A stretch of DNA of 64,000 nt from Pseudomonas phage HPP-Temi, in the sequence record PP968062.1. The stretch is one strand, 5' to 3'. This document shows, piece after piece, positions 5,008 to 63,393 of the stretch. Each line of letters starts with the position of its first letter. Positions within the stretch are counted from its first letter, which is position 1. The position numbers and the translations under genes are program-made. The notes under the pieces are model-generated. The model did no database searches. It saw only the letters and a program-made list of their open reading frames with translations, and had not been told where the DNA came from.

Positions 5008-5040
5008 TAAAGCCCGGCCTTGAGCCGGGCAATATGTCGT
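5008..5040. terminator. bidirectional hairpin (GCCCGGC-cttga-GCCGGGC) followed by AATATGTCG motif
   Basis: 7-bp GC stem between convergent genes 2086..5001(+) and 5040..6314(-); member of the hairpin+TATGTCG family. Confidence 0.7.
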
Positions 5041-6284
5041 TAAACACCGAGTTCGCGTTTGATCTCTTCAAACTTCTTATTCAGTGCTTCCCAGCCCGCG
5101 TCAGCTACATCGCTAACAACGTGTGCGTAGAAGTCTTCACGAACGATATCGTGAGCCTTGATGAAGAAGTTAGCGTAGGTCGCACCGGCTTTGTACTGAT
5201 ACAACGGCAGCTTATGGAAGATGTTAACCATGTCATTCAATGCTTCGATGCCAGTATTGATACTCTCAACAGTGGCTTGTAGCTGTGACATAGGTACAAC
5301 CGATTCTTCGAAATCATAACGACGGATCTTGCGAAGTTCATCTGCACACTGACCGTAGATATCGTAGATGAAACGGTACGAGAAAGCTTCACGCTTCAGC
5401 ATACGCTTAGAATCTTCGAAGAAACGAACACCAACACGTTTGTGCTTGATGTAGAAGTTAGGATCGTCAGATTGAGTATCCATGTTCTTCAGAGTTTCAG
5501 CCAAAGACTTAAGACGCGGACCAACGTGAGAATCGAAACCAAGTTCCAGACGGGAACGGTCCATTACCTGACGTACTTGACGGACTTGTTCAAGTAGCTG
5601 AGCGCCATACTTCTGAGCTTCTTGTTGGAGGTTACGTACACGACGAAGATCGTCATCTACACCAAAAGCCAGAAGACCCAGATCAGAACGAGGGAGCTTA
5701 GGATCAAGCAGAACAACTTCAGCAGCTTCGTAGTACTTACGATCTAGATTACGAGTACCAAGCTTGTTCATGGCTTGCATCGCTTTCCAGTTCGATTCCA
5801 GTTTGACGATCTGGCCGTTGATGCTATCAATACGACCTTGGATGAGTTCATCAGTCATCGTGAGAGACTTAACCCAACGCCAGGCTTTAGCTACGAAGTC
5901 AATCAGAGCACGGAACCATTCCTTGATAGTAGCAAGGATAGCTGCACCGATAGCTTCATTAGAAACTTTCATGTTAAGGCTGGTACGCGTCGGAGTGAAC
6001 AGTGAGTTATAGTTCTCAAGGGAAGGATATACCGGAACATTCAGACCGATCGATTCCATGGAACTATGGATGTTACGAAGAGCAGTGATGTCGTGCGAGG
6101 ATACACCTTCTGCTTTGATAGTAGCACGCAGCTCAGTCAGAGTAGTTAGATGCTCCAGTGCAGCGTGTACTTTGGTTTGCAGTTCGGGGTCAAGTTGAAC
6201 ACCGGCTACGGGTTCTGCTTCAACCTCTCGATCAAGCAGTCGTTGTTCTTCAAAAAGAACATCTTCATGTTCATGCATTTTCAT
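5040..6284 (-). CDS. hypothetical protein
   Basis: ORF track 5040..6314 (GTG); likely ATG start at 6282-6284 (MKMHEHED) with AAAGG SD. Confidence 0.65.
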   Translation of the reverse strand: MKMHEHEDVLFEEQRLLDREVEAEPVAGVQLDPELQTKVHAALEHLTTLTELRATIKAEGVSSHDITALRNIHSSMESIGLNVPVYPSLENYNSLFTPTRTSLNMKVSNEAIGAAILATIKEWFRALIDFVAKAWRWVKSLTMTDELIQGRIDSINGQIVKLESNWKAMQAMNKLGTRNLDRKYYEAAEVVLLDPKLPRSDLGLLAFGVDDDLRRVRNLQQEAQKYGAQLLEQVRQVRQVMDRSRLELGFDSHVGPRLKSLAETLKNMDTQSDDPNFYIKHKRVGVRFFEDSKRMLKREAFSYRFIYDIYGQCADELRKIRRYDFEESVVPMSQLQATVESINTGIEALNDMVNIFHKLPLYQYKAGATYANFFIKAHDIVREDFYAHVVSDVADAGWEALNKKFEEIKRELGV

Positions 6285-6573
6285 TACCTTTAGAATGCTC
6301 GTGGAGCTTGTCACGTAGGAGGTACAACTCTAAACGAATAATCTCCTCAATCGCCTTACGTCGTGCAACAATAACACCACGCTTAGAATCGAAGGCAGTT
6401 TTATTCGCAACAATTGCATCGGTGACTATCCGATGTCCATTACTTAGTTTAGTAATGCAGACAGTCACCAACATTTCAGGGTCAGAGATGATCTTCTCTT
6501 TAACAATTAACGACTTGGCGTATGCTTTAGTAATCCTAGGATGCACCAAATCGTCATGGGTATGGTCGACCAT
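6271..6573 (-). CDS. hypothetical small protein (100 aa)
   Basis: ORF track; short overlap with downstream gene. Confidence 0.45.
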   Translation of the reverse strand: MVDHTHDDLVHPRITKAYAKSLIVKEKIISDPEMLVTVCITKLSNGHRIVTDAIVANKTAFDSKRGVIVARRKAIEEIIRLELYLLRDKLHEHSKGNENA

Positions 6574-6590
6574 GACGACCCCTCCCTGAC

Positions 6591-7031
6591 TTAGCCTTCT
6601 ACTTCAAGCTGGCGCAGAACGTTAGTCACTTCGTTTTGGCACTTGGCGAATTCGTAGCGGCTAGCGAGCATTTGTGCGGTAGCGGTTTCATCGCTGGTCT
6701 GATATTCTTCAGCGGTAACAGATTTCATCGCAGCTTCAACGATAGCCGGATCAGTTACACAGTTAATCAGTTCCAGACGAATACGGACGATCTGCTTGAA
6801 CAGTTCAGTAGCAAGTTTCAGATCGAGAGCAATGTTCTCGTTAACCTGACCAGCTACTTTACGGAGCATGGGCATATGCGCATCGATCAGCTCTTCACAG
6901 GAAAGGCTCGGATCGAGTTGAACATAGAAACCAACAGCGTTAGCTACGAACATAGCGCGAGCTTGACGATCATTGTTGGTCGGAGATTTGATTTCTTTCA
7001 GGATGCGGGCAATTTCAAAACCAGTACGCAT
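6591..7031 (-). CDS. hypothetical protein (146 aa)
   Basis: ORF track; tight spacing in minus-strand gene string. Confidence 0.6.
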   Translation of the reverse strand: MRTGFEIARILKEIKSPTNNDRQARAMFVANAVGFYVQLDPSLSCEELIDAHMPMLRKVAGQVNENIALDLKLATELFKQIVRIRLELINCVTDPAIVEAAMKSVTAEEYQTSDETATAQMLASRYEFAKCQNEVTNVLRQLEVEG

Positions 7032-7046
7032 TTCGGTCTACCTTGT

Positions 7047-8400: not shown

Positions 8401-10113
8401 ATGAGTGATGATATTTCTTTTAGTAAAGAAGATGTAGTTGGTATCGAAGCTAAACATATTACTTACGTTACCGACCGTAACCATCGCAAGCATGACTTGC
8501 ACGTTGTTAAAGAGGTCATCCATCTTAAGGACAAGCGTCGGATTCCTCGTCTCCGTTTTATTGAGGATTATGAACGTCCTTGGTGGTTGGACCCTGAGGC
8601 CAACAAGAAAGAAGGGCAACGTTCTTACACTGAGAAGAAAGACTACGAATATGAGAAGAAACTCCTCAAACGTAAGTCTACTCAAATTAACATGCCGCAC
8701 GCTATCGCTAAAGCTCTTGGTGATTACAGCATGGGTCCTAACCCACGGATGCGTCAACTGAGTCGTAGTCCTTATCTGTACGGTTCTGACGTTAGCTCTG
8801 TTTGCTATCTGAAGAACGACTATCGAATGGCTGCTCCTGATCTGATCTCTCGTAACACTGTCGCTGGTGGCGACATTGAGACCAACGTTTACGAAGATGG
8901 TAAAGATGGTGAGATCATCTGCATGTCCGTATCGTTTAAAGATAAAGTCTATCTGGCTTATCTGAAACGTTGGGTAAGTGACCTCAAAGATCCTATACAA
9001 GAAACCTTTGATGAACTGGAACGTATCCCTGAGTTGGTTGCTCTTCGTAAGGGACGTAATCTGAACATCGAGATCGAAGTAGTTGATCAACCGGTTCACA
9101 TCGTAATTAACTGCATAAAGCGTCTCCACAAATGGAAGCCTGACTTCTTCTCCTTCTGGAACATCAGCTTCGACATGAGTCGAATCCTGAAAACTCTGGA
9201 AGACGCTGGTGTTGATCCGGCGGTTGTATTTAGTGATCCGTCTGTACCGGCTAACTACAAGTACTTCCACTTCCGTCAAGATCAAGCGATGACCACTACG
9301 GCATCGGGTGTAACCAAGTCTAAAGGTCCAGAAGACCAATGGCACTGGATTACTTGCCCTGCATCTTTCCAACCGATCGATGCGATGTCTACTTACCGTG
9401 TAACTCGTCTGGCTAAAGGTAAGGAACCGTCTTACGCGCTTGATTACATTCTGAAGAAAGAACTCAACGTCGATGAAGATGCTGAGATTCTGGGTGAAGG
9501 TGATCTGGTTAAGTTCCAGAAAGGTCTCGACAAACTGTTAGCTGAACGTCCGGGTAGTTATCCTTATCTGTTCGTTAACTACAGCGGTAAAGAAGATGAC
9601 TGGACTCCGGTTGAACACTTCACTTGGGGTGACACTGTAAACCTGGGTAACCATGTTCGTTACACCATGAACTTTGGTAAGCTTAAGTTCCCTGAAACTG
9701 ATCACCTCGGAGGGATCGAATGGCACATTGAGATGCAGAAGAACCACAAGGTTCGTTATGGTCTTTACAACATCATCGACTCCATTCGTCTGGAGCAACT
9801 CGATGAGAAGATCAATGACCTTGCCAGTTCTATTACTCTGTTCTCGAAGTCTTCCGACTATAAGAACTTTAGCTCTAACCCGAAGCGTCTTTGTGACGAC
9901 ATGCACTTCTGGTATCTGAACCGTCCTGAGCCGTGTGTCATTGGTACTAGCTCTGACCAAATGGTTCACGAGCTCGATCAGTACGTAGTGGGTCACGATA
10001 GCTGGATTGTTACACTGCCTTCTTACATGGCTGGTCCGAACGGATTGAAGTGTGTTAAGGACTTACCTGATTACAAGACTTTGATCTTTAGCCACGTAGC
10101 TGATTTGGATTAA
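8401..10113 (+). CDS. family B DNA polymerase, N-terminal 3'-5' exonuclease part (split polymerase)
   Basis: Exo I GGDIETN, Exo II FWNISFDMSRIL, Exo III SYALDYILKKEL with typical spacing; SD AAAGGAA upstream of ATG. Confidence 0.65.
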   Translation: MSDDISFSKEDVVGIEAKHITYVTDRNHRKHDLHVVKEVIHLKDKRRIPRLRFIEDYERPWWLDPEANKKEGQRSYTEKKDYEYEKKLLKRKSTQINMPHAIAKALGDYSMGPNPRMRQLSRSPYLYGSDVSSVCYLKNDYRMAAPDLISRNTVAGGDIETNVYEDGKDGEIICMSVSFKDKVYLAYLKRWVSDLKDPIQETFDELERIPELVALRKGRNLNIEIEVVDQPVHIVINCIKRLHKWKPDFFSFWNISFDMSRILKTLEDAGVDPAVVFSDPSVPANYKYFHFRQDQAMTTTASGVTKSKGPEDQWHWITCPASFQPIDAMSTYRVTRLAKGKEPSYALDYILKKELNVDEDAEILGEGDLVKFQKGLDKLLAERPGSYPYLFVNYSGKEDDWTPVEHFTWGDTVNLGNHVRYTMNFGKLKFPETDHLGGIEWHIEMQKNHKVRYGLYNIIDSIRLEQLDEKINDLASSITLFSKSSDYKNFSSNPKRLCDDMHFWYLNRPEPCVIGTSSDQMVHELDQYVVGHDSWIVTLPSYMAGPNGLKCVKDLPDYKTLIFSHVADLD

Positions 10114-10162
10114 ATATACGTAAAGATGATATTTCCTGTTATTGTATACAGGAGATATTAAC

Positions 10163-11497
10163 ATGATAAATAATGACATGCGTTACTTACCTCACTCTGG
10201 TCGACGGTATATGGTCAGTCGTTGTGGTAAGGTGTATGATACGAGTGGTATTGAGATAAAGCCTAATGGTGGTAACGTCAGATTAACTTGGTTAAATGGC
10301 GACGATAGTTATTCGGTGGGCATGTTAGTAATTGTAACATACCAGCCTATATACCTACCTGATCACCTTTGGATAAAAATCGAACCTCTTCATCTAGATT
10401 GTGACCCTAACAATAATCATGTCGATAATTTGCGGTATCGTTTCGTAAATGGTAAATTGGAGTATGAAGCAATTCCAGGCTTCTACTATATTCCACATTA
10501 CACCAAATATGTAATCGATATTTACGGAAATATGCTCACTGCTGAAAATGGCAGAGATAAGACTTGGGGTTATGTAAAGTCAGATCTAGAACGTAATTCG
10601 AAAGGTGGATACAGATTTACACGAGTCGTTAATGAACCCGGTGTTAATTCTGTGCTACTTAGACATAGAGCGTTGTGTTTTGTGTTTAAACCAGTTGAGC
10701 GTGCAAGTGATTATGACTTGCTCGTAAACCACATTGATGGCGTACCAGGTAACGATAACTTAGACAATTTGGAATGGGCGACGTATGCAGAGAATAACAA
10801 GCATGCTCACGCCAACGGTCTAAGTGGTGGTAAAGCTAAAGGTGTACTGATGCGTAATATTGAAACCGGTGAACTGAGTAAATTCGCAACCACTAAAGAG
10901 GCGGCGAAAAGTCTTGGGCATGGTTCCAATGCACAAATACGACATCGCTTAAGACATGGTCAAACCATCCACTATCTCGATAATTTACAATTCAAATGGG
11001 ATGATGGTACCGACTGGCTGGATGTGGATATAACCACACCTGCTATTGAATGTAAAATCGGTACAATGATGGCTTCTCGAAATGTCTTAACTGGTGAAGT
11101 CAGAACTTTCGGATCATTTGAAGAAGGTGAGAAATTAACTGGTATTGACAAACAGACGATTGCAATTCATATTCGTGATAATCAGATTGTTCCTTTCCAA
11201 GGTTTTAATTTTGGTTGGTACAAAGAAGGCATGGAATGGCCTATTCATTCTGATATTAACATGAAGGCCTACAAGAAATATCCGACACGTACGCCTGACC
11301 CAATTATTGTGGAAGACATGATACTTGGGGATAAAGTAATCGTGGAAAGTAGGAATGAATTAGCTACTCTTCTTAAGATCAGTCCCAGTTATGCTACTCA
11401 ACTTGTGTCAAACGCAATGATTTATCAGGATAGGTACAAAATGACCTATCATCGTTTACGTGACAACATTTTAGTCCCATCAAGTTGGAATACTTGA
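10163..11497 (+). CDS. HNH homing endonuclease (HNH + AP2/NUMOD-like DNA-binding region)
   Basis: Motif NHIDGVPGNDNLDNLEWATYAENNKHA (H-N-H); SD AGGAGAT before ATG 10163; markedly AT-rich compared with flanks. Confidence 0.8.
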   Translation: MINNDMRYLPHSGRRYMVSRCGKVYDTSGIEIKPNGGNVRLTWLNGDDSYSVGMLVIVTYQPIYLPDHLWIKIEPLHLDCDPNNNHVDNLRYRFVNGKLEYEAIPGFYYIPHYTKYVIDIYGNMLTAENGRDKTWGYVKSDLERNSKGGYRFTRVVNEPGVNSVLLRHRALCFVFKPVERASDYDLLVNHIDGVPGNDNLDNLEWATYAENNKHAHANGLSGGKAKGVLMRNIETGELSKFATTKEAAKSLGHGSNAQIRHRLRHGQTIHYLDNLQFKWDDGTDWLDVDITTPAIECKIGTMMASRNVLTGEVRTFGSFEEGEKLTGIDKQTIAIHIRDNQIVPFQGFNFGWYKEGMEWPIHSDINMKAYKKYPTRTPDPIIVEDMILGDKVIVESRNELATLLKISPSYATQLVSNAMIYQDRYKMTYHRLRDNILVPSSWNT

Positions 11498-11835
11498 TGC
11501 AAACTTCTTTAATTGCCGGGGAAATCCTTAGAGACATGTACACCAAATCCATGTAGTGATACATGGACGGCCAGATTAACTACCTGGGTATGGTAAAAGA
11601 GACATGTATTGGGTGATCCGCAGCGAAGCTTCTCTCTGAGAAGAACGTTCAACGACTATCGAAACCACTGCGCAAGCAGACAAGGGAGTAGAGTAGGATC
11701 AAGTGATCCGAAATGGGAAGCATCCGATCCTCGCAAGAGAAGGATGGTGATATAGTCTCCACATCCAGGGAAAGCCTGGAGCAGCACGTTATAGTGCGGA
11801 TAGAGCGTAACGAACTCTATCGAAGATACTGGATT
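11498..11835 (+). ncRNA. group I self-splicing intron catalytic core (P3-P9)
   Basis: P element AATTGCCGGGGAAATCC 11511-11527; Q GATCCGCAGCG 11615-11625; R GTTCAACGACTATCG 11646-11660; S GATGGTGATATAGTCTCC 11744-11760; P7 GACTA/TAGTC; P9 hairpin CCAGGGAAAGCCTGG 11765-11779; close matches to Tetrahymena/T4 consensus elements. Confidence 0.8.
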
Positions 11836-12063
11836 GTCAGTACTTATCCGAACGTTAGCCAGATTCTCAACATTGCTCGGGAAACAACTGTCATGGAATT
11901 CTCCATGATGAAAGATATCTCTGAGCATCATCGTCGAGAAGTAGGGGTGAACTTAACTGGTGGTCGTGTCAACGCTATTGAGATCTGCCAGAAGATCATG
12001 AAAGCTCCGAAGTTGGATGAGATGTTGAAGCTCTACATGGAGAAGAAGGCTAACTCCCCAAAG
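11797..12063 (+). CDS. putative downstream exon or displaced 3' gene segment (frame of ORF 11713..12066)
   Basis: Only open frame after intron core; candidate 3' splice sites after G at 11781/11796/11832; start coordinate uncertain. Confidence 0.3.
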
Positions 12064-12143: not shown

Positions 12144-12431
12144 ATGCCAGATGGTCGTACAATCGAGATGCACTATCAATGTGACATCAAAGGTTATGAA
12201 CCAGGTGGTACTAATTGGAAGCTTGGTAAAGGTAAACCTCCATTAGCTTCTATAAACTCCTGGGAGGCCTATTACGGGCTTTGGGAGACTTGGGCTAAGG
12301 CAAACCCTGACTTGATGAAAGAACTTCGTATAGGAGCCGATAAGAACGAAGGATATCTTTCTGATGTCTTTGCATCGACTAGTATTTCACAGGCTCGTGC
12401 TCTAGCAGAACTTTTGAACAAAGGCTATTGA
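12144..12431 (+). CDS. hypothetical small protein (95 aa)
   Basis: ORF track; weak SD; ends at hairpin 12441-12459. Confidence 0.35.
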   Translation: MPDGRTIEMHYQCDIKGYEPGGTNWKLGKGKPPLASINSWEAYYGLWETWAKANPDLMKELRIGADKNEGYLSDVFASTSISQARALAELLNKGY

Positions 12432-12436
12432 CAACA

Positions 12437-12468
12437 TATTGCCCGGCTTAAGGCCGGGCTTTATGTCG
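12437..12468. terminator. bidirectional hairpin (GCCCGGC-ttaag-GCCGGGC) + CTTTATGTCG
   Basis: Near-identical, inverted copy of element at 5008-5040; between convergent genes. Confidence 0.7.
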
Positions 12469-13122
12469 TTAAGCTTTACCAATCAAATCTAGAACAGGTC
12501 GCCAACCATAGTTAGCCATACCTGAATCAGCTATTTCGGTCGTGGTACCGATTAGCTGGTTATACCCGCGTGCGCGGTGAAACTGTGGATCAGCAGCGGA
12601 TTCTTCTTGGACCCAGCAAGCACTTCCTACTACAGAGGGAGCACACCCCAATTCAACATTCGTGAAACTAGCTAATACTGGATTATAGTTAGCTGACCTA
12701 CCCACGCCTAGTGGATACATCCAACGCTCCCACTCGCCACCCCAACTTATCGTGTTAGATACAACATTCTTAGTTGTACCGGTCATAACTCGAACACGAA
12801 ACTGATGTCTACCGATTTGGATGATCTTACCAAAGATAAGATCTTTCGCATTTAGTTCAGTCCATCGAATGTTGTTTCTCAATTGCTGTTTAGCAATGTA
12901 GATAAGTTTCCCGTTTTCCACCATTTTTAACCAACCGCCCGCGGTTGCAATAGGCGTACCTTCGGTGATACCAACGAGGTTAGCAAAAGCCAAAGGTCCA
13001 GGTAAGCCTTCTACAAACTCACCATAAAAGCCATGGAGAGAACTACCAGAGATAAGTTCTTGCGGGCCAGGTGGTAATGTGTCATCGTACATCTTAAGTA
13101 CGGAAAGCAATGACTCGAACAT
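12469..13122 (-). CDS. hypothetical protein with MFESLL N-terminus (possible fiber/receptor-binding C-domain)
   Basis: ORF track; N-terminal MFESLLSVL shared with 54409..55326. Confidence 0.65.
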   Translation of the reverse strand: MFESLLSVLKMYDDTLPPGPQELISGSSLHGFYGEFVEGLPGPLAFANLVGITEGTPIATAGGWLKMVENGKLIYIAKQQLRNNIRWTELNAKDLIFGKIIQIGRHQFRVRVMTGTTKNVVSNTISWGGEWERWMYPLGVGRSANYNPVLASFTNVELGCAPSVVGSACWVQEESAADPQFHRARGYNQLIGTTTEIADSGMANYGWRPVLDLIGKA

Positions 13123-13162
13123 ATGTAATCCTGCTCTTCTAAAAACCTATACCGTTGACGGC

Positions 13163-13190
13163 ATAAGCCCTCCCCGAAGGGAGGGCGTTA
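13163..13190 (-). terminator. hairpin GCCCTCCC-cgaa-GGGAGGGC
   Basis: 8-bp GC stem immediately 3' of minus gene 13194..14639. Confidence 0.65.
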
Positions 13191-13193
13191 TGT

Positions 13194-14673: not shown

Positions 14674-14696
14674 AGGGGAATTGGTAAGATTCCCCT
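14674..14696 (-). terminator. hairpin AGGGGAAT-loop-ATTCCCCT
   Basis: 8-bp stem 3' of minus gene 14702..16045. Confidence 0.6.
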
Positions 14697-19282: not shown

Positions 19283-19678
19283 ATGAACTCTTTCGGTCGT
19301 AGGACATCTAACGGTAAGAGTGCATTCGATGAACTCGTGCGGACGCTAGGAGCCGTAAGGCCAGTTATCGCTGAGATGATGACGCGCAAGGCTTATCATA
19401 AAGACTATGGTATTTTCGATCACGATTCAGATGAAGCAGATCCTTTGGACTTGGTTCGCCTGCATCCTAAAGAAAACATCATTGAAGGTGGACCTGAGCG
19501 TACTTGGATTCGTAAATTCGTTAACTACAAGATCAATGAGATCTACGGAGTGTCGTTATTAGACTTCTTCGAGATTCCATTTAACCATTGCCTGTTTATG
19601 GTTGAACTCGCTGAGTCAAAAGCTCTGCAAGGTAGTATTCAGGCTAGACAGCTTGAGAAAGATCTTGGACTGAAATAA
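19283..19678 (+). CDS. hypothetical protein (start uncertain)
   Basis: ORF track 19103..19678 begins with GTG overlapping previous gene; first ATG at 19283. Confidence 0.4.
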   Translation: MNSFGRRTSNGKSAFDELVRTLGAVRPVIAEMMTRKAYHKDYGIFDHDSDEADPLDLVRLHPKENIIEGGPERTWIRKFVNYKINEIYGVSLLDFFEIPFNHCLFMVELAESKALQGSIQARQLEKDLGLK

Positions 19679-19689
19679 AAAAAAAATAA

Positions 19690-19727
19690 GGCATACGCCC
19701 TCTCCCGAAGGAGAGGGCTATATGTCG
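19690..19727. terminator. hairpin GCCCTCTCC-cgaa-GGAGAGGGC + CTATATGTCG; A10 tract upstream
   Basis: 9-bp stem; minus RNA gets U10 tail; same stem sequence recurs at 61332. Confidence 0.75.
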
Positions 19728-21051: not shown

Positions 21052-21328
21052 TTACAAACAGGATCAGCGTAAAGTAAGTTAATACCAGGTAACATTTCTT
21101 TACGAACGTATGGATCAATCGGGTCAACGCAATCTCAGAATACTCTATAGACTGCTTTATTAACGTCGGTTTGATGTTCTGTCCGGCTAAACGTAACATG
21201 TGTTTATAGTGCGCGGTTCTGTACTCCTCGCGGAGCTTCAGTTCCAATACATACATCATGACGGCTAATATCGGTGAAACAATAAGCAGGATCACAGGTG
21301 ACATTTCTCTATTTCCTCTTCGTGGCAT
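21032..21328 (-). CDS. small membrane protein (2 TM)
   Basis: ORF track 21032..21337 (GTG); ATG at 21326-21328. Confidence 0.5.
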   Translation of the reverse strand: MPRRGNREMSPVILLIVSPILAVMMYVLELKLREEYRTAHYKHMLRLAGQNIKPTLIKQSIEYSEIALTRLIHTFVKKCYLVLTYFTLILFVIAVTNI

Positions 21329-21353
21329 AAAGCCCACCCGGAGGTGGGCTATG
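21328..21353 (-). terminator. hairpin GCCCACC-cgga-GGTGGGC + CTATG
   Basis: 7-bp stem 3' of helicase gene; CATAAAG 5' flank. Confidence 0.6.
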
Positions 21354-21354
21354 T

Positions 21355-22890
21355 TTAGTGCATGGATATACGCCGTAGCACCATCGACAATGTCTTCCCA
21401 GCGAAATGTTCTCCTTTATTACGTGCATATCTCACGTGATGCGGTATGTTCTCGCAGACCATGTAGGTCAAACGTGGGACTACGTCAAGGAAATCTTTCA
21501 GCTTACGGAGACGACCCAGAATTTGGATGTTGTCTTTCTTCGAGTCAGTTGCTTGGAGAAGCACTACCTCACGAAGGTTAGGAATGTCTACACCTGTACC
21601 GGATGACTTAATAGTAGACACCGTAATGTCGTTATTAAGTAGCTGATCGTAACTACACCCAGAGACATGTCCGTTAACAGTCAAGTCAGGGAACTTAGTC
21701 TTCAGGTATTTAACCAGCTTTTCAATGAAGGCTACAGTTGCACACAGGAGGAGTAGCTTCTGACCAGGTAAGCGGTCTTTCACATACACGCCTTCTGCAA
21801 TACGACCAACCATCTTGAAGTATTCATCCATCCGCTTAGGATCTTTCATCATTACTGTTTCGTAACGCGCATGGTTATACGTGTTCTTAAACGGAGTCAG
21901 ATAATCCTTAGGCTTGATCTTAGGTTCGGTGTAGAGTAACCCCATGCAGTTGATGTAGACGTCGTAGTTAGGCAACCGACACATCGTCTCGGCAGGCAAC
22001 ATCTTGTCAATCATCTTCGTCACGTAGGCATTCCCTGTGTAGGGAGTAGCCGACAGATATATCTGCTTATTAATGTTCGAGTAAATATCGATCCGGAAGG
22101 TTAGACCTGGATCCTCTTGAATCTCGTCATTGATTTGGCAGCCTGCTTGGATTGCTTCGTGGAACCGGGGCGGTGGTACATTATACCCGAGCTCATGGAG
22201 TCGGTTTCCGTACTTCTCGAAGTTATCAAGATATGCCCGGTAGGTAGTAGAAGAGATTACAATAACGTCAATCCCTTCAAGATCGTTTTCAACGCCACGA
22301 TCAATCAGTTTCTGAAGCTCGGCGGAACCAGAGATTGTGATGTATCTCTGAGCAATGTCTTTGTACGTGTTCTGGAGAGCCTCAATCCAAATACCGAAGT
22401 ACTTGGGAGGAACCATCACAACGCAACGACACATCATCGAGGCAAGGGATGCTAGACTTGTTAGGGTCTTTCCTTTACCTGTTTGTAGGTCAACTCGTGC
22501 AGAGTGTAACCAGTCCCGCAAAATGTCTTCACGGATGATTTCCTGATAATCCCGCAGTACGTATTTTTCGTACATCTCGTAGGTAGCTGCTGCTGCCTTT
22601 GGGACAGGGATATCCTCAATCTCGACTCGTTCTCTTGGGATACCTTTGTTCTCCAGATAACCGATCAGGTCTTCTAGTGAATTTCGGTGGATATAAGTCT
22701 CTGATAGATCTTCGAAACAACCATAGTACTTTTTCTTGAGTTCCATGATGATTCGATTACCAGGGATCTTCTTAGGTTCTTTCAAAGAAAGCCCTTCAAG
22801 AAACCCCTGCATTTTAGCGAACGTTTCCCGAGTATACCCAGATAGTCGGACACCATGCGTATAGCGCTCAGCCTTGAGTATCGGTACCAT
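21355..22890 (-). CDS. SF2 helicase (DExH/D-box-like)
   Basis: Walker A TGKGKT, DEIQ box, SAT (LSATP), motif VI QILGRLRK. Confidence 0.8.
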   Translation of the reverse strand: MVPILKAERYTHGVRLSGYTRETFAKMQGFLEGLSLKEPKKIPGNRIIMELKKKYYGCFEDLSETYIHRNSLEDLIGYLENKGIPRERVEIEDIPVPKAAAATYEMYEKYVLRDYQEIIREDILRDWLHSARVDLQTGKGKTLTSLASLASMMCRCVVMVPPKYFGIWIEALQNTYKDIAQRYITISGSAELQKLIDRGVENDLEGIDVIVISSTTYRAYLDNFEKYGNRLHELGYNVPPPRFHEAIQAGCQINDEIQEDPGLTFRIDIYSNINKQIYLSATPYTGNAYVTKMIDKMLPAETMCRLPNYDVYINCMGLLYTEPKIKPKDYLTPFKNTYNHARYETVMMKDPKRMDEYFKMVGRIAEGVYVKDRLPGQKLLLLCATVAFIEKLVKYLKTKFPDLTVNGHVSGCSYDQLLNNDITVSTIKSSGTGVDIPNLREVVLLQATDSKKDNIQILGRLRKLKDFLDVVPRLTYMVCENIPHHVRYARNKGEHFAGKTLSMVLRRISMH

Positions 22891-22904: not shown

Positions 22905-22930
22905 GGGAATGGGAGAGCCGAAGCTCTCCC
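22905..22930 (-). terminator. hairpin GGGAGAGC-cgaa-GCTCTCCC followed on minus RNA by UUGAUUUUUUAUG (start codon of helicase)
   Basis: 8-bp stem between beta' C gene stop and helicase start. Confidence 0.65.
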
Positions 22931-22946
22931 AACCTCGGCCTCCAGC

Positions 22947-27502: not shown

Positions 27503-27532
27503 GCAGGGGACCCGAAGGCCCCCTGCTTTATG
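27503..27532. terminator. hairpin GCAGGGG...CCCCTGC + CTTTATG
   Basis: 7-bp stem with CCGAAGG centre between convergent genes. Confidence 0.6.
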
Positions 27533-27537
27533 CCGTC

Positions 27538-32148: not shown

Positions 32149-32209
32149 AGGAAATAGAGGGCATACAGCATCTCTCGGTATTTACCAAAGAGATGCTGTA
32201 GTTTTTTAT

Positions 32210-36640: not shown

Positions 36641-36660
36641 GCGGAGTCCTAAGACTCCGC
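36641..36660 (-). terminator. hairpin GCGGAGTC-ctaa-GACTCCGC + U-rich tail on minus RNA
   Basis: 8-bp stem 3' of 36678..37100. Confidence 0.65.
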
Positions 36661-37100: not shown

Positions 37101-37128
37101 GTGAACTTCCTTACTGCCTCATTATAAA

Positions 37129-37155
37129 GGAGTCCCCGAAGGGACTCCATTTATG
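37129..37155 (-). terminator. hairpin GGAGTCCC-cgaa-GGGACTCC + CATTTATG
   Basis: 8-bp stem 3' of 37159..37773; CATTATAAAG 5' flank. Confidence 0.65.
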
Positions 37156-37158
37156 TTG

Positions 37159-39260: not shown

Positions 39261-39282
39261 ACCTACTTCCTATTGTGTTGCG

Positions 39283-39321
39283 ACAAAAAAAGGAGATAGA
39301 AGCGGCTCCCGAAGGAGCCGC
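39283..39321 (-). terminator. intrinsic terminator: hairpin GCGGCTCC-cgaa-GGAGCCGC followed on minus RNA by UCUAUCUCCUUUUUUUG
   Basis: 8-bp stem + T7 tract, downstream of the 621-aa gene, upstream of beta' N gene. Confidence 0.75.
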
Positions 39322-41808: not shown

Positions 41809-43368
41809 TTACTCTTCGGTTGGAAGGTCAAAGAAGTCGTCTACGTTACCTCGGATACCGTGAACGATTGCGGCTGCTTCTTTACGAGAAGTTGCTTTAG
41901 CCAGTTGAGTAGCGTGCCGAATGAACACGTCCGAATACTCCTTCATCAGGGTGAGTTCCTGAGAACTGAGCTTGTCAGACTTCTTACCCAGTTGCTCTGC
42001 GATCTCACGGAGACCCGAAAGCCCATGACGAGCTTCCAACTTACCATTGACCACGCTATCGCGAACGAAAGCTTTAATGATGTCGAATGCCCAGAGGCGT
42101 TCTACGTCATCAGTGATCTTGGTGAAGTCAATCGACATCGGGTCACGGAAAAATTCCCCGCGACGAATGCTATCAGCAGAAAGAGCGGAAATTCGCATAG
42201 AGCGAGTGTTACCACCTTCCTTATTGATCGCATGCGCTTCTTTGGTAATGCGAGCCGATTCATCGATCAGGAGTTGAGCGATAGACGGACCAGCGAACTC
42301 TTCACGCAGTGCTTTGCGGTCAAGTTCATCTTGAGTCGGTTCAAGACTGGTAGTAAGGCGTTGTGCAATAGAAGGACGAGCCAGATCTTCCGGGCGAAGG
42401 ACCAGCTTGTCTTCTGCTTCTGCGTAGTACATGTCAGTCAAACCAGGGTTCTGGAGCTGATTATTGATATTGGTGCTGTGTTCAACACCATTAACAACTT
42501 GGTCATAGCTCCGGAAAATAGAGGGAACAGAACGCAAACGGGTGTTGAAATCCTTGCTATTAGCAATTGGTTCAAACGGAACATTGGGAGGGGAGTTACG
42601 TTGAGTACACTCGATAGCTTTGTTTTCCATACGACCGCTACTAACAAGCCACTCTTCGAACATGACTCCATTGATCTGACCTTCGGCACAGCACTTCTTA
42701 TAGAAGCTGATGTACTTTTGGTAGGTATGTACACGGAGTCGGAATGCTTCTCCGTAATGTTCCATCAAATGGTTAACAAGGGGTTTGATGGTAAACAGAG
42801 GTTGAGGGGCATTGCTCTGGTTTTTGATGTCACCTTTCAAGGCCTTCGCCAACTCACGCAAGAACTTGACGTTGTAAGTGCAGAAGTCAGCGCAGGATTC
42901 CGGAGGCAACAGCATACCACAGATTTCGGTAATGGCTTCAGCGATCAGTTCTTCATCGGTGTTACCGATGTTCAGGTATTCGTCCCGTTGATCTACACCT
43001 TCAACCAGTTCAGTATAACGCCCAGATTCCAGAAGCTCGATACCTTTAGTGCGATTGCACCACCAGTCTTCGAACAGAGAATCACGAGTACCGGGAGCCT
43101 TCAGGAAAGAATCGTAATGCTCAATCATTGCTTGGACGCGATCCATGGTAGTCTTGGCGAACTGGGCACGGATGTGGCGATCAAGGGTATACGGAGAGAC
43201 AGAGATGTCCGGAATGTTTTCCATCAGTTCGTTGAACATCGCTGTAACGAACTTCGGATTCTGGGTAGCAAAGAGCTGGTGATTCTGGGCACCCATAGTT
43301 TGATGGAAGAAGCGATCCATTGCGGCGGTAACGATAGCGCGCCGATGGGGAGTATAACGGTTATCCAT
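41809..43368 (-). CDS. hypothetical protein (519 aa)
   Basis: Long ORF; early-type promoter upstream. Confidence 0.75.
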   Translation of the reverse strand: MDNRYTPHRRAIVTAAMDRFFHQTMGAQNHQLFATQNPKFVTAMFNELMENIPDISVSPYTLDRHIRAQFAKTTMDRVQAMIEHYDSFLKAPGTRDSLFEDWWCNRTKGIELLESGRYTELVEGVDQRDEYLNIGNTDEELIAEAITEICGMLLPPESCADFCTYNVKFLRELAKALKGDIKNQSNAPQPLFTIKPLVNHLMEHYGEAFRLRVHTYQKYISFYKKCCAEGQINGVMFEEWLVSSGRMENKAIECTQRNSPPNVPFEPIANSKDFNTRLRSVPSIFRSYDQVVNGVEHSTNINNQLQNPGLTDMYYAEAEDKLVLRPEDLARPSIAQRLTTSLEPTQDELDRKALREEFAGPSIAQLLIDESARITKEAHAINKEGGNTRSMRISALSADSIRRGEFFRDPMSIDFTKITDDVERLWAFDIIKAFVRDSVVNGKLEARHGLSGLREIAEQLGKKSDKLSSQELTLMKEYSDVFIRHATQLAKATSRKEAAAIVHGIRGNVDDFFDLPTEE

Positions 43369-43402
43369 TTCATTTTCCTCTTTTGGTATTAGGGTGGATA
43401 TA

Positions 43403-43449: not shown

Positions 43450-44535
43450 ATGTACATGCTATTCCGGGACGCCCCAGCGCGGCGCTTAGGGCAAGCAGTT
43501 GACCCAAAGATCGTCTATATCCGTAGGACGTATCGGGAACTGATCAACGATGTAAAGAACTATTACCGTAAGGCTCCAAAGGCTGTCGGCGCGGCAAACA
43601 TTTTCGCTAACATGATCCAACACTTTATCATTGATTGGAAGATCGATGATGCTGCTTGGGCAAAGAAAGTAGAAGATCAAGCAAAAGGCTTGTCACGTGT
43701 ATTTGGTCTAACCTCTGCTATTAATAGAGGAAAGATCCATGAGAAGGGAATCACGCTAGGTCCAAACTGCGAAGAGATCGCAATCGCCAGCTATGAGAAG
43801 TTCGAGAAGGAGGGTCTCGGAAAGCGCTGGAGAGATCTTACTCCTGTTAAGTATCTTTACCATACCCGGACCGATGTGAATCTCCCGATGATGAACAATA
43901 CAACTGCTGGTAAAGGTTACGGTATCATTACCGTTAACATTCCCATGTTGTTGATTCAGTATCGTTACTGGCTACGTTGGCAACAACAGCGTGGTGTAGA
44001 ACAGTTAGAGAACGCTTATCGCTTTGTTGGGAGTATCGTCCTCCCCAACATGGTAGAGAGCTATTTGGATATTGCTTATTTCAATAGGTTATCTCGTCAA
44101 GCACAAGGTATCAAGTGTTTGAGTTTCCCTGTGTCTCATCCGTTCTATCTTACGGATATGACTCCTCGGATTGATAAGCTTGTTGAGAACGTGAACTTCG
44201 AGAACTCTATTAAAGGTATCGAACTAGAAGGGCTGGCTTGGATTACTCCAGCAATCGTTAAGACTAACTTGTTCGAAGTCATGGAGATTCCTCGGGAACC
44301 CATCACGTATCAAAACGAATGGGCTTACACTTTAGCTCGGTTACCTTACGTTAAGTATCTGGTAACTATGCTTAAGAAGAATCCAGGTTACGATCGTTCT
44401 CAGATGAACGAAGTGTTAATCGATTTGATTGATGCTACAAACGACCAAGTCTTTAAGACTGCTGGTAACACTGAGATGGTTAAAGCATTGCGTCGTGACG
44501 TTGCTATCCTCATTGAAGAAATGAAAAAAACATAA
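43450..44535 (+). CDS. hypothetical protein (361 aa)
   Basis: ORF track; ends at hairpin 44542. Confidence 0.7.
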   Translation: MYMLFRDAPARRLGQAVDPKIVYIRRTYRELINDVKNYYRKAPKAVGAANIFANMIQHFIIDWKIDDAAWAKKVEDQAKGLSRVFGLTSAINRGKIHEKGITLGPNCEEIAIASYEKFEKEGLGKRWRDLTPVKYLYHTRTDVNLPMMNNTTAGKGYGIITVNIPMLLIQYRYWLRWQQQRGVEQLENAYRFVGSIVLPNMVESYLDIAYFNRLSRQAQGIKCLSFPVSHPFYLTDMTPRIDKLVENVNFENSIKGIELEGLAWITPAIVKTNLFEVMEIPREPITYQNEWAYTLARLPYVKYLVTMLKKNPGYDRSQMNEVLIDLIDATNDQVFKTAGNTEMVKALRRDVAILIEEMKKT

Positions 44536-44541
44536 TAAACA

Positions 44542-44572
44542 GCCCCTACCCGAAGGTAGGGGCTTTATGTCG
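44542..44572. terminator. hairpin GCCCCTACC-cgaa-GGTAGGGGC + CTTTATGTCG
   Basis: 9-bp stem; identical stem-loop recurs at 55342-55363. Confidence 0.75.
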
Positions 44573-45003: not shown

Positions 45004-45030
45004 CGACATAAAGCCCAGCCGAAGCTGGGC
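45004..45030 (-). terminator. hairpin GCCCAGC-cgaa-GCTGGGC; minus strand reads hairpin-CTTTATGTCGGAGTTAACATG
   Basis: Terminator of 45038..46207 fused to TATGTCG motif and SD of next gene. Confidence 0.7.
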
Positions 45031-46228: not shown

Positions 46229-46255
46229 CGACATAAAGGAGTCCCGAAGGACTCC
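46229..46255 (-). terminator. hairpin GGAGTCC-cgaa-GGACTCC + (minus) CTTTATGTCG
   Basis: 7-bp stem. Confidence 0.65.
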
Positions 46256-46261
46256 TCTGGT

Positions 46262-48734: not shown

Positions 48735-48767
48735 CGACATAATGCCCTCCCGAAGGAGGGCGATATG
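48735..48767 (-). terminator. hairpin GCCCTCC-cgaa-GGAGGGC; minus strand reads hairpin-ATTATGTCGTTG
   Basis: 7-bp stem 3' of 48768..49175. Confidence 0.7.
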
Positions 48768-51541: not shown

Positions 51542-51962
51542 ACTCCACTATTAAGTAGACTGTATCGGATTTCTCATCAAAGTAAACTTTTCTATTCCGA
51601 TAGTCCAGAACCAACGCATCCGGAATCATGTAACCAATTGCCTTTACCCGGTTCATCACGAACTGTACGATCTTGTCATCGAGCTCAACTCTTCTCTCTT
51701 CCGGTACCTCTTGCAGTGTACGATAACCGAATATCAGTAGAATCGAGTCTTCCAGATTGCTTACTTTGTAACGTCCAGTTTCAGGATCAAACCCGATACC
51801 ATGATCTACTTGCCAACAGATCGTACTGGCAATAAGATCCACGATACCATCAGTACCGATATAGTCCCGGATCTCATAGAAGCTCTCGTCGATGAGCCCA
51901 ATGAAGTCCGAACCTTTGAAAGTTAATAATAGCTGTTCTTTCACGATTTGACACTCCGGCAT
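51528..51962 (-). CDS. hypothetical protein (144 aa)
   Basis: ORF track. Confidence 0.6.
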   Translation of the reverse strand: MPECQIVKEQLLLTFKGSDFIGLIDESFYEIRDYIGTDGIVDLIASTICWQVDHGIGFDPETGRYKVSNLEDSILLIFGYRTLQEVPEERRVELDDKIVQFVMNRVKAIGYMIPDALVLDYRNRKVYFDEKSDTVYLIVEYEVA

Positions 51963-51965
51963 AAA

Positions 51966-51989
51966 GCCTCCAATAAAGGAGGCCCTATG
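51966..51989 (-). terminator. hairpin GCCTCC-aataaa-GGAGGC + CCTATG
   Basis: 6-bp stem with CATAAAG 5' flank; 3' of 51990..53009. Confidence 0.55.
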
Positions 51990-55326: not shown

Positions 55327-55341
55327 AAAAAATAAAGCATA

Positions 55342-55369
55342 GCCCCTACCCGAAGGTAGGGGCTTTATG
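55342..55369. terminator. hairpin GCCCCTACC-cgaa-GGTAGGGGC + CTTTATG; A8 tract upstream
   Basis: Exact copy of stem-loop at 44542; between convergent genes. Confidence 0.75.
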
Positions 55370-55372
55370 CCA

Positions 55373-55839: not shown

Positions 55840-55922
55840 GTCGTGATACCTTTAGGGTTTATTATCACGTTTGTAATATAGCCTTTAAATTGGTTTGAAT
55901 GTAAAAAGAAAAACGGAATAAA

Positions 55923-55942
55923 GCCCACCCCGAAGGGTGGGC
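55923..55942 (-). terminator. hairpin GCCCACCC-cgaa-GGGTGGGC
   Basis: 8-bp stem, ATAAAG 5' flank, 3' of 55962..56468. Confidence 0.65.
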
Positions 55943-55961
55943 TATTCTTTAGCAAGTCTAA

Positions 55962-57245: not shown

Positions 57246-57266
57246 TTCTGTCTCCTAAGGACATAT

Positions 57267-57296
57267 GCTCTCCCTTTCACGGGAGAGCATTTATGC
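57267..57296 (-). terminator. hairpin GCTCTCCC-tttcac-GGGAGAGC + CATTTATG
   Basis: 8-bp stem; stop codon of 57291..57788 embedded in TTTATG. Confidence 0.65.
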
Positions 57297-57788
57297 CGCT
57301 TTTTCTTTTGATGTTTCGGTTAGTAACACACCCCATCCGGGATGACTCTTTCGGTTGAACAGTAACGGCTTACTTCGTATATACGGAGCATCCTCTGTTA
57401 GAACGGTGAATGTACAATGACCGGGGTTGTCATCAATCTTGAAATAGAAGTTATCTTTCAGGTCATCTACCTTAGTAATGTTCAGTGGAATCAACATCCC
57501 ACCCCCATGAACATACCAACGTTTGTAAATCCTTTTAGCAAGCCTATCCTCGACCACGGGATTAGACTGGAACCGAGCTATCCTCAAACGCATTCCATTG
57601 ACTTCAGACCACGCATCAACTTTGTCGTAACATGTAACTCCGTCCTTCTGGAATACAAATACAAAGCCTTCAAGAACGCCGACTAGTGTGACGGCATGGT
57701 GTAACATCGCTGTGTAACTGGAGAGTTCGAGGTCAAGCTCAGCTGCCATTAGCTCATCGAGCTTTTTCGCTGCTGACTTAGCCATCAT
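57291..57788 (-). CDS. hypothetical protein (165 aa)
   Basis: ORF track. Confidence 0.6.
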   Translation of the reverse strand: MMAKSAAKKLDELMAAELDLELSSYTAMLHHAVTLVGVLEGFVFVFQKDGVTCYDKVDAWSEVNGMRLRIARFQSNPVVEDRLAKRIYKRWYVHGGGMLIPLNITKVDDLKDNFYFKIDDNPGHCTFTVLTEDAPYIRSKPLLFNRKSHPGWGVLLTETSKEKAA

Positions 57789-58527: not shown

Positions 58528-58552
58528 AATTAATCTCCAAGACGGAATAAAA

Positions 58553-58570
58553 GGGGAGCCGAAGCTCCCC
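58553..58570 (-). terminator. hairpin GGGGAGC-cgaa-GCTCCCC
   Basis: 7-bp stem 3' of PhuZ gene. Confidence 0.6.
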
Positions 58571-61059: not shown

Positions 61060-61320
61060 GGTGGATGGGGCTTTGTAGCCCCACGACACCCTCTTCCAAG
61101 TTTTGCGACATAGTCGTTTTTTGTTTCCCTACCCCTGACTAAAGAATAAGGAAATTATATATGGGACCCCCCCAAAGGGTCCCCCCCACATATAATTACT
61201 ATTTATATAAAAATTCTTTTAGAAGAAAAAGCTTTGAATAATGAAAATACTCTTTATTAAAGAATTCTATTCTTCTACTACAAATTACTTATGCGCGGCC
61301 CGGCCCCGCGAAAAAGAAAA
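61060..61320. other. AT-rich, structured non-coding segment with C7 tracts and GC-clamp hairpins
   Basis: No ORF; two-tier hairpin GGGTG-GGGGCT-ttgt-AGCCCC-CACCC, GGGACCCCCCC-aaa-GGGTCCCCCCC, GCGCGGCCCGGCCCCGCG, about 80 percent AT between. Confidence 0.5.
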
Positions 61321-61331: not shown

Positions 61332-61358
61332 CCCTCTCCCGAAGGAGAGGGCTTTATG
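61332..61358 (-). terminator. hairpin CCCTCTCC-cgaa-GGAGAGGG + CTTTATG; U-rich tail on minus RNA
   Basis: Same stem as 19697-19718. Confidence 0.75.
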
Positions 61359-61360
61359 CC

Positions 61361-62146: not shown

Positions 62147-62177
62147 TGTAGACTCCTGTTAGGGGATGGAATATCAC

Positions 62178-62205: not shown

Positions 62206-62214
62206 CAACATAAA

Positions 62215-62232
62215 GCCTCCCCGAAGGGAGGC
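62215..62232 (-). terminator. hairpin GCCTCCC-cgaa-GGGAGGC
   Basis: 7-bp stem with CATAAAG 5' flank, 3' of 62240..62545. Confidence 0.6.
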
Positions 62233-62239
62233 GTTTATA

Positions 62240-62545
62240 TTACTCGATTTCAACCCAAGGGCGAAGATCCATTACGGTCGGAGCAGCTTTCTTGATGTAA
62301 GCCAGAATAGCAGCTTTATCAACAGTAGGCTTCAAAGCAATACCAATTACGATACTGTCTTTGTTACGAACTAGTTTACGGACCTGGTTGCTCTCCAGAC
62401 GCTGTTCTTCGAAGAACAGTTTACTGGGGAAGGGTAAGTCATAGGGAAGCTGGAAAAGCTTATGTAGGACCATTGGAACGGTTTCCAGAGGGGTACCTAG
62501 TTCAGCTTTGATTTCTTCCAGAGTAACTTCAAATTGCGTAGCCAT
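62240..62545 (-). CDS. hypothetical protein (101 aa)
   Basis: ORF track. Confidence 0.6.
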   Translation of the reverse strand: MATQFEVTLEEIKAELGTPLETVPMVLHKLFQLPYDLPFPSKLFFEEQRLESNQVRKLVRNKDSIVIGIALKPTVDKAAILAYIKKAAPTVMDLRPWVEIE

Positions 62546-62554
62546 ATCAAATCC

Positions 62555-63316
62555 TTAGATTGTGTAGTATTCGTGATAACGACGAAGCTTATCGTCATCC
62601 AGAGCGATCTCTTGATAACTGATAGTGATCTTCATGTGGTTCCACGGAGAACGGAATGCACGACCCGTTAGGGATACTTCACGATAGTCATTTACTTTTT
62701 CATCGACCACGGATTCCTCGAATACAACACCGAGCTTACCGAAACGTTTAATGAGCAGTTCAATGGACCGACCCAGTTCACCAGGAACATCAGGGAACTC
62801 AGTAGCAGATGCAATACGGGGCATTACTACCGGACCGTCTTCAACTTCGTAATTAACTTTGAATACAACTACGCCGAGATCGGTTTTGATGGGACGGAAA
62901 ATCCGATAGCCGTCTTTATTTAGACGCAGAGTGTAACCGTCATCAGGATATGCTTCTTGTAAAGCCTCTAGATGATCCTCCAGTGCACGAACGATACTCC
63001 GGTTGTACCGTAGCTCCCTTTCTCGGTAATCGCGTTCAAACGCTTCTTGGGGGCCTTCTTTTGTGAATTCTTTTACGACCGTATATTCGATTGTCTCACC
63101 AGTCAAGTGATCAGTGATAATAAACAAATAGGTCATCGCATCGACCAGAGAGTGTTGGACACTGTACCGTTTTACGTCACACGGGACTGCGTCTGCACGC
63201 TCTTCTTTGAGATAGTCAAACATGTCTTTGAGATGAGCCCATACGTCACAATTCGTACCGAGCCCATCGATGTCAATAGACGTATCTGGAACTTCTCTTT
63301 TAGCGCAGCAACTCAT
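62555..63316 (-). CDS. hypothetical protein
   Basis: ORF track 62555..63322 (GTG); ATG 63316 preceded by GAGGTG; hairpin+TATATGTCG about 50 nt upstream. Confidence 0.65.
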   Translation of the reverse strand: MSCCAKREVPDTSIDIDGLGTNCDVWAHLKDMFDYLKEERADAVPCDVKRYSVQHSLVDAMTYLFIITDHLTGETIEYTVVKEFTKEGPQEAFERDYRERELRYNRSIVRALEDHLEALQEAYPDDGYTLRLNKDGYRIFRPIKTDLGVVVFKVNYEVEDGPVVMPRIASATEFPDVPGELGRSIELLIKRFGKLGVVFEESVVDEKVNDYREVSLTGRAFRSPWNHMKITISYQEIALDDDKLRRYHEYYTI

Positions 63317-63364
63317 ACGCACCTCTATAATGGTATTTAGCTTTCACATGATAAAAGAAAAAGG

Positions 63365-63393
63365 CGACATATAGCCTCTCCCGAAGGAGAGGC
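63365..63393 (-). terminator. hairpin GCCTCTCC-cgaa-GGAGAGGC; minus strand reads hairpin-TATATGTCG
   Basis: 8-bp stem 3' of 63404..63829. Confidence 0.7.

Follow-up and report, generated by a model that had tools for sequence, protein, structure and literature searches.

A family of short GC-rich hairpins, most with a C(UUCG)G loop and many followed by TATG, was found behind genes in a 64,000-nucleotide stretch of Pseudomonas phage HPP-Temi (PP968062.1), referred to here as the window. These elements are very probably intrinsic, hairpin-dependent transcription terminators of the phiKZ-like type. Each consists of a GC stem of 6-11 bp, a small loop (mostly UUCG on the terminated transcript), a 2-nt spacer and the tail TAT[G/T]YYGT. 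Megablast placed the window in a phiKZ-like, nucleus-forming jumbo Pseudomonas phage of the Chimalliviridae. Identity to PA1C, PS119XW, BRkr, phiLBG22, phiHQ and HHBS36_1 was about 87.6%, and 201phi2-1 and PhiPA3 were more distant. Window genes were annotated by tblastn transfer from HHBS36_1. The data showed that the window encodes beta-like subunits of both the non-virion RNA polymerase (nvRNAP) and the virion RNA polymerase (vRNAP) of such a Chimalliviridae genome, together with the nuclear shell protein, PhuZ tubulin, DNA polymerases and virion proteins. Most genes lie on the minus strand, and the plus-strand genes form short islands, each closed by a convergent junction.

The number of hairpins was determined in two ways. 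In a perfect-stem scan compared with dinucleotide shuffles, tetraloop hairpins with CGAA on the plus strand and a stem of at least 7 bp occurred 15 times, against 0.6 expected, and all hairpins with a 4-nt loop and such a stem occurred 25 times, against 5.0 in the shuffles. The TTCG orientation was represented on the plus strand by one weak hairpin only, with a 5-bp stem. Gap-by-gap inspection, in which one mismatch and other loops were allowed, gave a curated census of 24 intergenic GC hairpins, with 16 CGAA loops, one CGGA loop and seven others. CGAA on the plus strand is C(UUCG)G on minus-strand RNA, which was therefore present in 16 of the 24. The mean folding energy was -14.7 kcal/mol for plus-strand RNA and -15.7 kcal/mol for minus-strand RNA, compared with -1.6 kcal/mol for random windows of the same length, of which 0.8% reached -10 kcal/mol. 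The 5' arm of the stems is rich in C and the 3' arm in G, as in GCCCTCCC/GGGAGGGC and GCCCTCTCC/GGAGAGGGC. All 24 hairpins lay outside credible genes, and they follow gene 3' ends in the sense orientation. Single hairpins common to convergent genes occupied six gaps when the curated gene map was used, or seven with the tiny ORF 61161-61241 included. An earlier, sequence-only reading of this DNA had described the same hairpin family, and the census bore it out; its statement that almost every gene is followed by such a stem was too strong, since a family hairpin was present within 100 nt of 29 of the 75 complete gene 3' ends.

The flanks of the stems were also analyzed. TATG starting -1 to +4 nt from the stem end was found on 26 of 48 stem sides, where 0.77 were expected (binomial P = 4e-34). 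The sequence-only reading had described conserved CATA and TATG flanks; CATA on the left and TATG on the right each occurred in roughly one hairpin in two. The eight exact TATGTCG sites that it cited all exist and abut hairpins, the first of them at 5033 rather than 5034, and the distance from TATG to the next ATG, given there as 20-50 nt, was 12-151 nt when measured. The bare 7-mer TATGTCG was not enriched in the window (13 copies, 8.5 expected), and copies at 7224, 25413, 44867, 61106 and 61826 were unrelated to hairpins, so the signal lies in the position of the motif beside stems. Rfam held no family for the hairpins, its sole match in the window being a group I intron; a sigma-70 promoter scan of the window returned fewer sites than in shuffles; and a generic terminator scan caught two family hairpins only, owing to the lack of a T-run in the tail.

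Each stem is perfectly palindromic and reads identically on either strand; direction is given by the loop and flanks only. Where minus-strand genes stand in tandem, NN-TATG(T/C)CG(T) comes after the hairpin on that strand. In convergent gaps, a single hairpin takes up nearly the whole gap, and the same tail follows it on the plus strand, immediately next to the stop codon of the minus-strand gene that converges on it. One element can serve in two directions because its stem is a perfect palindrome, and the CATA...TATG symmetry arises mainly because each direction has its own tail. Among the sense-direction tails of the window, 19 of 29 carried TATG and three more carried TATT, in agreement with the phiKZ tail YTTATKYYGT, which lies immediately 3' of the stem. 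Long U runs were seen in few elements only (19697, 55341 and 61332 on the minus strand, and 39302).

The 302-kb genome of HHBS36_1 was assembled and scanned for hairpins. It contained 92 intergenic GC hairpins, at 4.9 per kb of intergenic sequence compared with 0.36 per kb of coding sequence, a 14-fold difference; 66 were unidirectional and 19 bidirectional. In the 66 unidirectional hairpins the sense-strand loop was UUCG in 31 and CGAA in three, which indicates that the tetraloop is selected on the RNA being terminated. The tail logo, anchored on TAT, was TAT[G.79/T.21][T/C][C/T][G.67][T.72], which reproduces the phiKZ consensus; the spacing from stem to TAT was 2 nt in 58 of 75 cases, and the window tails were the same as this logo. 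The extended form TAT[GT]YYG was sense-specific (44% for sense sides, 15% for the others), and the bare TATG/CATA palindrome occurred on both sides. Full mirror arms accompanied 18 of 24 bidirectional tails and 11 of 34 unidirectional tails, and the mirrored position co-varied with G/T (C opposite G in 29 of 51, opposite T in 0 of 7). Pairing of CAUAA with UUAUG as an obligatory extension of the stem was considered and rejected, full mirroring being found in only 11 of those 34 unidirectional tails.

Next, the window hairpins were aligned with those of HHBS36_1. The stems were identical in 18 of 21 aligned hairpins. Two stems carried compensatory double substitutions (12450 and 19707), and one carried a single-sided change (22920); in the first of the two compensated elements (12432..12468) two stem pairs had changed, and in the second (19692..19727) HHBS36_1 has a different but still paired stem. 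About half of the loops differed between the two phages. Selection acts on pairing rather than on the exact loop. At two elements the loop was flipped relative to HHBS36_1 with the stem kept (55341-55364, CGAA to TTCG; 5012-5030, CTTGA to TCAAT), a sign that inversion within the palindrome, or template switching, may take place in bidirectional terminators.

The elements were then compared with terminators mapped in related phages. Mapping of phiKZ transcript ends by ONT-cappable-seq (ONT, Oxford Nanopore Technologies) gave 61 intrinsic terminators with a common motif, 5'-BCCYCCCCHWWDGGGRRGGBYTTATKYYGT-3', in which a TTAT region comes after a stem-loop; six bidirectional terminator regions lie between convergent genes (Putzeys 2024, microLife). 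For 201phi2-1, 132 termination sites were reported, 15 of them bidirectional; motif A (n = 59) is similar to that of phiKZ, motif B makes the hairpin longer, and eight terminators were validated in vivo, stopping transcription between two reporter genes (Microb Biotechnol 2024). The window elements resemble these motifs in the GC stem with its C-rich 5' arm and G-rich 3' arm, the small loop, the YTTATKYYGT tail, the location after genes, the two-way use at convergent pairs and the upstream (A)ACrrCATA arm that elongates the hairpin. They come from a different phage species (PA1C/PS119XW group). The UUCG loop was present in about two thirds of the window hairpins, compared with roughly a third of the hairpin terminators in the part of the phiKZ table covered here, and the published loop consensus is HWWD.

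Counts from the phiKZ tables (bioRxiv supplement, Putzeys 2024) cover rows P008-P126 and the termination-site rows before T077, and the start-site rows P040 and P041, whose sequences seem shifted, were not relied on. Position 60 of each sequence in the termination-site table is the mapped 3' end. Among the rows covered, the 3' end of T036, T051, T057, T059 and T071 lay 7-10 nt past the stem, inside or just after TTATGT(CG). Single hairpins with ends on both strands were found at T051/T052, T059/T060 and T070/T071, with the flanks CGACATAA...TTATGTCG, and UUCG or CGAA loops were common there also. Two window elements have mapped phiKZ orthologs in these rows: that at 39302 (GCGGCTCC-UUCG-GGAGCCGC-UUCUAUCUCCUUUUUUUGU) is near-identical to T025, downstream of the shell gene, and that at 22910, which lies behind the nvRNAP genes, corresponds to T033. 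The terminator half of the sequence-only reading is thus supported by the match to a consensus derived from mapped 3' ends in phiKZ and 201phi2-1 and by these two orthologs.

Similarities were also seen with more distant systems. As in canonical bacterial intrinsic terminators, a GC hairpin is followed by a U/A-rich release segment, with an upstream arm complementary to the tail, and two-way use is likewise known from bacterial bidirectional terminators with an A-tract/U-tract pair. Unlike the bacterial terminators, in which a run of about 7-9 U follows the hairpin, the window elements have a short U-tract (UUUAU) and then a conserved G/U-Y-Y-G-U. C(UUCG)G hairpins are reportedly present in intercistronic regions of phage T4 as well. 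These share the hyperstable UUCG tetraloop, closed by C-G and placed between phage genes, but T4 is of a different phage family, and to our knowledge no conserved TATKYYGT tail has been described for them.

By analogy with phiKZ, 3' ends would form at the window sites in HPP-Temi in the following way. The polymerase would transcribe the stem, the RNA hairpin would form, and release of the transcript would follow 7-10 nt further on, within the U/A-rich tail TTATG(Y)CG, which would act as the U-tract of a bacterial terminator. A single element between convergent genes would serve both directions, each with its own tail. Several points weigh against this interpretation. Termination in HPP-Temi is predicted from homology, and 3' ends mapped by ONT-cappable-seq do not distinguish fully between termination and processing. 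Roughly one in three unidirectional terminators also carries the CATAA arm where no gene ends, so bidirectionality alone is insufficient to explain it. Finally, in several tandem gaps (21331, 45013, 46237 and 63374) the tail TATG is the sole TATG upstream of the next gene, and a secondary, weak promoter role may exist at such gaps.

We also analyzed whether tails differed between early and other operons. An early-promoter motif of the vRNAP type, an AT-rich stretch and then ATCTATATTAC as in phiKZ early promoters, occurred seven times on the minus strand of the window (27092, 32118, 41589, 43411, 53459, 61028 and 62182), where it precedes, among others, the nvRNAP subunit genes, the shell gene and the PhuZ operon; in HHBS36_1 it occurred 26 times, all on one strand, in two sub-types. 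In HHBS36_1, the first terminator after an early promoter carried a TATG tail in 6 of 22 cases, compared with 53 of 82 for every other tail in sense direction (Fisher P = 0.003), and outside the region orthologous to the window the figures were 4 of 13 and 40 of 62 (P = 0.03). In the window they were 1 of 5 and 18 of 24 (P = 0.036), 39302 being excluded from the early group since the nearest credible gene end is more than 150 nt away; re-including 39302 and rescoring the tail at 32165 as TATG would strengthen this contrast. Hand tabulation of the phiKZ rows covered, with operon class taken from the nearest upstream mapped start on the plus strand, gave TATG in 1 of 5 early and 13 of 19 middle or late operons. 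At the convergent gaps of HHBS36_1 alone, the contrast was not significant (2 of 5 versus 25 of 33, P = 0.13). The early-operon terminators ended in TATT, U-runs or other sequences.

One interpretation is that the tail is a polymerase-specific termination signal, TATG serving nvRNAP and other tails serving vRNAP, a tentative idea that we regard as unlikely. At promoters nvRNAP binds single-stranded non-template TATG in a pocket of the beta-like subunit GP123, and it may re-recognise the tetramer in the elongation bubble. It would then pause and release at TATG just after the hairpin, the same 4-nt word being start or stop by context. The support is statistical, the samples behind the contrast between early and other operons are small, and the early operons were predicted from the motif. 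A caveat is that the host polymerase also terminates at 201phi2-1 terminators, versions of which work with it in vivo (Microb Biotechnol 2024). No paper linking the tail TATG to polymerase class was found in the literature searched. The link between the G of the tail and polymerase class is possibly new.

The same tetranucleotide occurs in late promoters of this phage family. The phiKZ late promoter is reportedly 5'-TATG-3', with G as +1. TATG with G at +1 is the essential core of nvRNAP late promoters, is insufficient alone and shows no conservation downstream (Yakunina 2015), and non-template TATG is bound by GP123 (nvRNAP-p119L structures). The sequence-only reading had taken the TATG beside the stems for a late promoter and its plus-strand copies for sources of antisense transcripts. 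On this account the TATG 2 nt after the stem would be a late nvRNAP promoter that restarts transcription after termination, giving antisense RNA at the plus copies, which we consider distinctly improbable. The tandem gaps in which the tail holds the only upstream TATG fit it, and it also predicts that TATG tails are rarer after early operons. In phiKZ, P049 and P075 start at a second TATG about 10 nt beyond a terminator stem. However, none of the 57 phiKZ late starts in the rows examined lay at a TATG 2 nt after a GC stem; P016, P054, P078 and P104 start 20-45 nt beyond a module, and modules also precede the early promoters P001, P017 and P028. In the stretch at 70-118 kb, for which both tables were covered, none of ten motif terminators had a same-strand start within 10 nt.

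The composition and position of the tails also argue against promoter function. The phiKZ late promoters have neither a conserved downstream YYGT nor a GC hairpin immediately upstream, whereas the terminator tails lie just 3' of such a hairpin and are conserved through +5 to +8 (YYGT). The G is replaced by T in 21% of HHBS36_1 tails. A GC stem at about -5 to -25 is likewise unlike the sequence upstream of the mapped phiKZ late promoters, which appears AT-rich in the rows covered. The tail was as common where no co-directional gene lies downstream, as for every plus-strand tail at the convergent gaps of the window and for 25 of the 33 non-early tails at convergent gaps of HHBS36_1. Some modules have a separate early promoter directly after them, at 62215 and 32165 in the window and in 5 of 14 strict early-promoter matches in HHBS36_1. 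As for antisense transcripts, only four antisense RNAs with a defined start were found in phiKZ (Putzeys 2024). The plus-strand TATGTCG copies at 5033, 12462, 19721 and 44566 directly follow plus-strand genes that the sequence-only reading had not recognised (2086-5001, 12144-12431, 19283-19678 and 43450-44535), and are therefore ordinary sense-direction tails, the second arm of bidirectional terminators, comparable to the phiKZ pairs T051/T052, T059/T060 and T070/T071.

Another explanation, which we hold to be very improbable, is that transcripts are read through and then trimmed, with the stable UUCG hairpins serving only as a barrier to 3'-5' exonucleases. The stability of C(UUCG)G hairpins is exceptional, sense RNA shows selection for the UUCG orientation, and ONT 3' ends do not tell trimming from termination. 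Trimmed 3' ends usually abut the stem. The phiKZ ends in the rows covered lay instead 7-10 nt beyond it, within the conserved tail, which mere protection would not need, and the eight terminators of 201phi2-1, placed between two reporter genes, halted transcription in vivo. DNA-level palindromes, whether binding sites of dimeric proteins, cruciform signals or mobile repeats like repetitive extragenic palindromic (REP) sequences or miniature inverted-repeat transposable elements (MITEs), would account for the extended dyad symmetry CGrCATA-NN-stem-loop-stem-NN-TATGyCG and the two identical copies at 44541 and 55341, but have next to no probability, because stem sequences are diverse and evolve by compensatory change, loop orientation tracks gene direction 31:3, an RNA-level property, the extended tail is strand-specific (44% versus 15%) and the elements always lie at gene 3' ends. 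REP/MITE-like mobility in particular was rejected, since the copies have unlike stems and the phages retain the elements at orthologous positions, with compensatory changes.

The individual elements, predicted as terminators on the evidence above, were as follows. The bidirectional terminator at 5003..5039 (CGGCATAAA-GCCCGGC-cttga-GCCGGGC-AATATGTCG) has TATG tails on both strands and fills a 38-nt convergent gap between the plus-strand gene 2086-5001 and the minus-strand gene 5040-6284. Further bidirectional elements occupy convergent gaps at 12432..12468 (CAACATATT-GCCCGGC-ttaag-GCCGGGC-TTTATGTCG), at 19692..19727 (CATAC-GCCCTCTCC-cgaa-GGAGAGGGC-TATATGTCG, with a minus-strand tail of GTATGCC and then a U-run), at 44541..44572 (AGCCCCTACC-cgaa-GGTAGGGGCT-TTATGTCG) and at 55338..55371 (CATAGCCCCTACC-cgaa-GGTAGGGGCT-TTATGCCA). 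Stems differ among copies, and the last two are the sole exact duplicate: 44541-44564 and 55341-55364 are an identical 24-nt hairpin with an identical plus-strand TTATG tail (AGCCCCTACC-CGAA-GGTAGGGGCT-TTATG). The element at 27503..27535, one of the 16 with a CGAA loop, also serves both strands, with the plus-strand tail TTTATGCCG; its minus direction closes an early operon and has no TATG. One plus-strand mismatch in its hairpin (27503-27526), A.C, is G.U on minus-strand RNA, and the folding energy was -21.1 kcal/mol for the minus strand and -15.7 kcal/mol for the plus strand, so the stem is better suited to the minus-strand, early-operon direction. The terminator at 61332..61360, with UUCG in the loop, possibly serves both strands, with a U-rich run as its minus-strand tail (early operon) and CTTTATGCC on the plus side.

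The remaining elements read on the minus strand. Those with a UUCG loop on minus-strand RNA lie at 13157..13193 (tail TTATGCCGTC), 37120..37158 (tail TTTATAATG, plus side ATTTATGTTG), 45004..45030 (tail TTTATGTCGGAG, the next ATG 12 nt on), 46229..46256 (tail TTATGTCGTAA), 48735..48767 (tail ATTATGTCGTTG, palindromic plus arm GATATGTT), 55914..55943 (tail TTATTCCGT, with T replacing G) and 63365..63393 (tail TATATGTCGCC). With the same loop, the terminator after the nvRNAP genes, an early operon, is at 22910..22931 (tail TTCCCCTCGTTGATTTTTT, no TATG), that downstream of the nuclear-shell operon at 39302..39321 (tail TTCTATCTCCTTTTTTTGT), that after the early operon containing PhuZ at 58543..58570 (tail TTTTATTCCGTC), and one with an early-promoter motif directly after it at 62206..62232 (tail TTTATGTTG). 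Other loops were found at 21321..21354 (UCCG on minus-strand RNA, CGGA on the plus strand; tail TTTATGCCACG) and at 51957..51989 (6-bp stem, loop UUUAUU, tail TTTATGCCGGAG). A hairpin at a junction of two genes, 57259..57299 (ATGCTCTCCC-(6-nt loop)-GGGAGAGCAT), has TATG on both sides. Two further hairpins lack a TATG tail, the variant at 14674..14696 (AGGGGAAT-(7-nt loop)-ATTCCCCT), which is conserved in HHBS36_1, and that at 36641..36660 (GCGGAGTC-uuag-GACTCCGC). The variant long hairpin at 32160..32199 has an 11-bp stem, a 13-nt loop and the tail (T)ATGCCC, followed by an early promoter; wrong coordinates led to its tail being scored as 'other' in the tail counts above, whereas read correctly it is TATG (the T at the base of the stem, then ATGCC).

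Other features of the window were also recorded. Between the shell-gene operon and the terminator at 39302, positions 39418-39562 are 145 nt of non-coding sequence, which could be a long 3' untranslated region or a small RNA, and the small annotated ORF 39229-39417 that overlaps this terminator is probably spurious. The plus-strand DNA polymerase gene is split into exon 1 at 8401-10110 (aa 1-570 of the HHBS36_1 protein) and exon 2 at 11833-12063 (aa 571-647). The 1.7-kb insert between them, at 10111-11832 on the plus strand, is absent from HHBS36_1, is low in GC (0.41 over 10-12 kb) and contains an HNH_3/NUMOD1 homing-endonuclease ORF (10142-11497) and the Rfam group I intron core (11446-11781, 59 bits). 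Two minus-strand genes, 12469-13122 and 41809-43374, diverge from HHBS36_1 far beyond their neighbours, which are 85-98% identical. The first encodes a virion structural protein of 217 aa, compared with 422 aa in HHBS36_1, with 43% identity over the N-terminal half; the second, adjoining the shell gene, has 41.5% identity to its counterpart. The DNA helicase at 21355-22890 on the minus strand is a single ORF of 511 aa, where HHBS36_1 annotates two coding sequences (360 aa and 145 aa); the difference could be a frameshift, an annotation difference or a real split.

The terminator type is already known from phiKZ-like phages but had not been described in this species. In the annotation of PA1C-like phages, the modules can serve as markers of where transcription units end, and no late promoter should be assigned to a TATG beside a GC stem. 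For synthetic biology they offer compact terminators, many of them usable in both directions, whose type has already proved functional in Pseudomonas. If the G of the tail does track the polymerase class of the operon, it would give a testable handle on termination by both multisubunit phage polymerases, and would bear on why nvRNAP ignores most TATGs, context deciding between start, stop or nothing.

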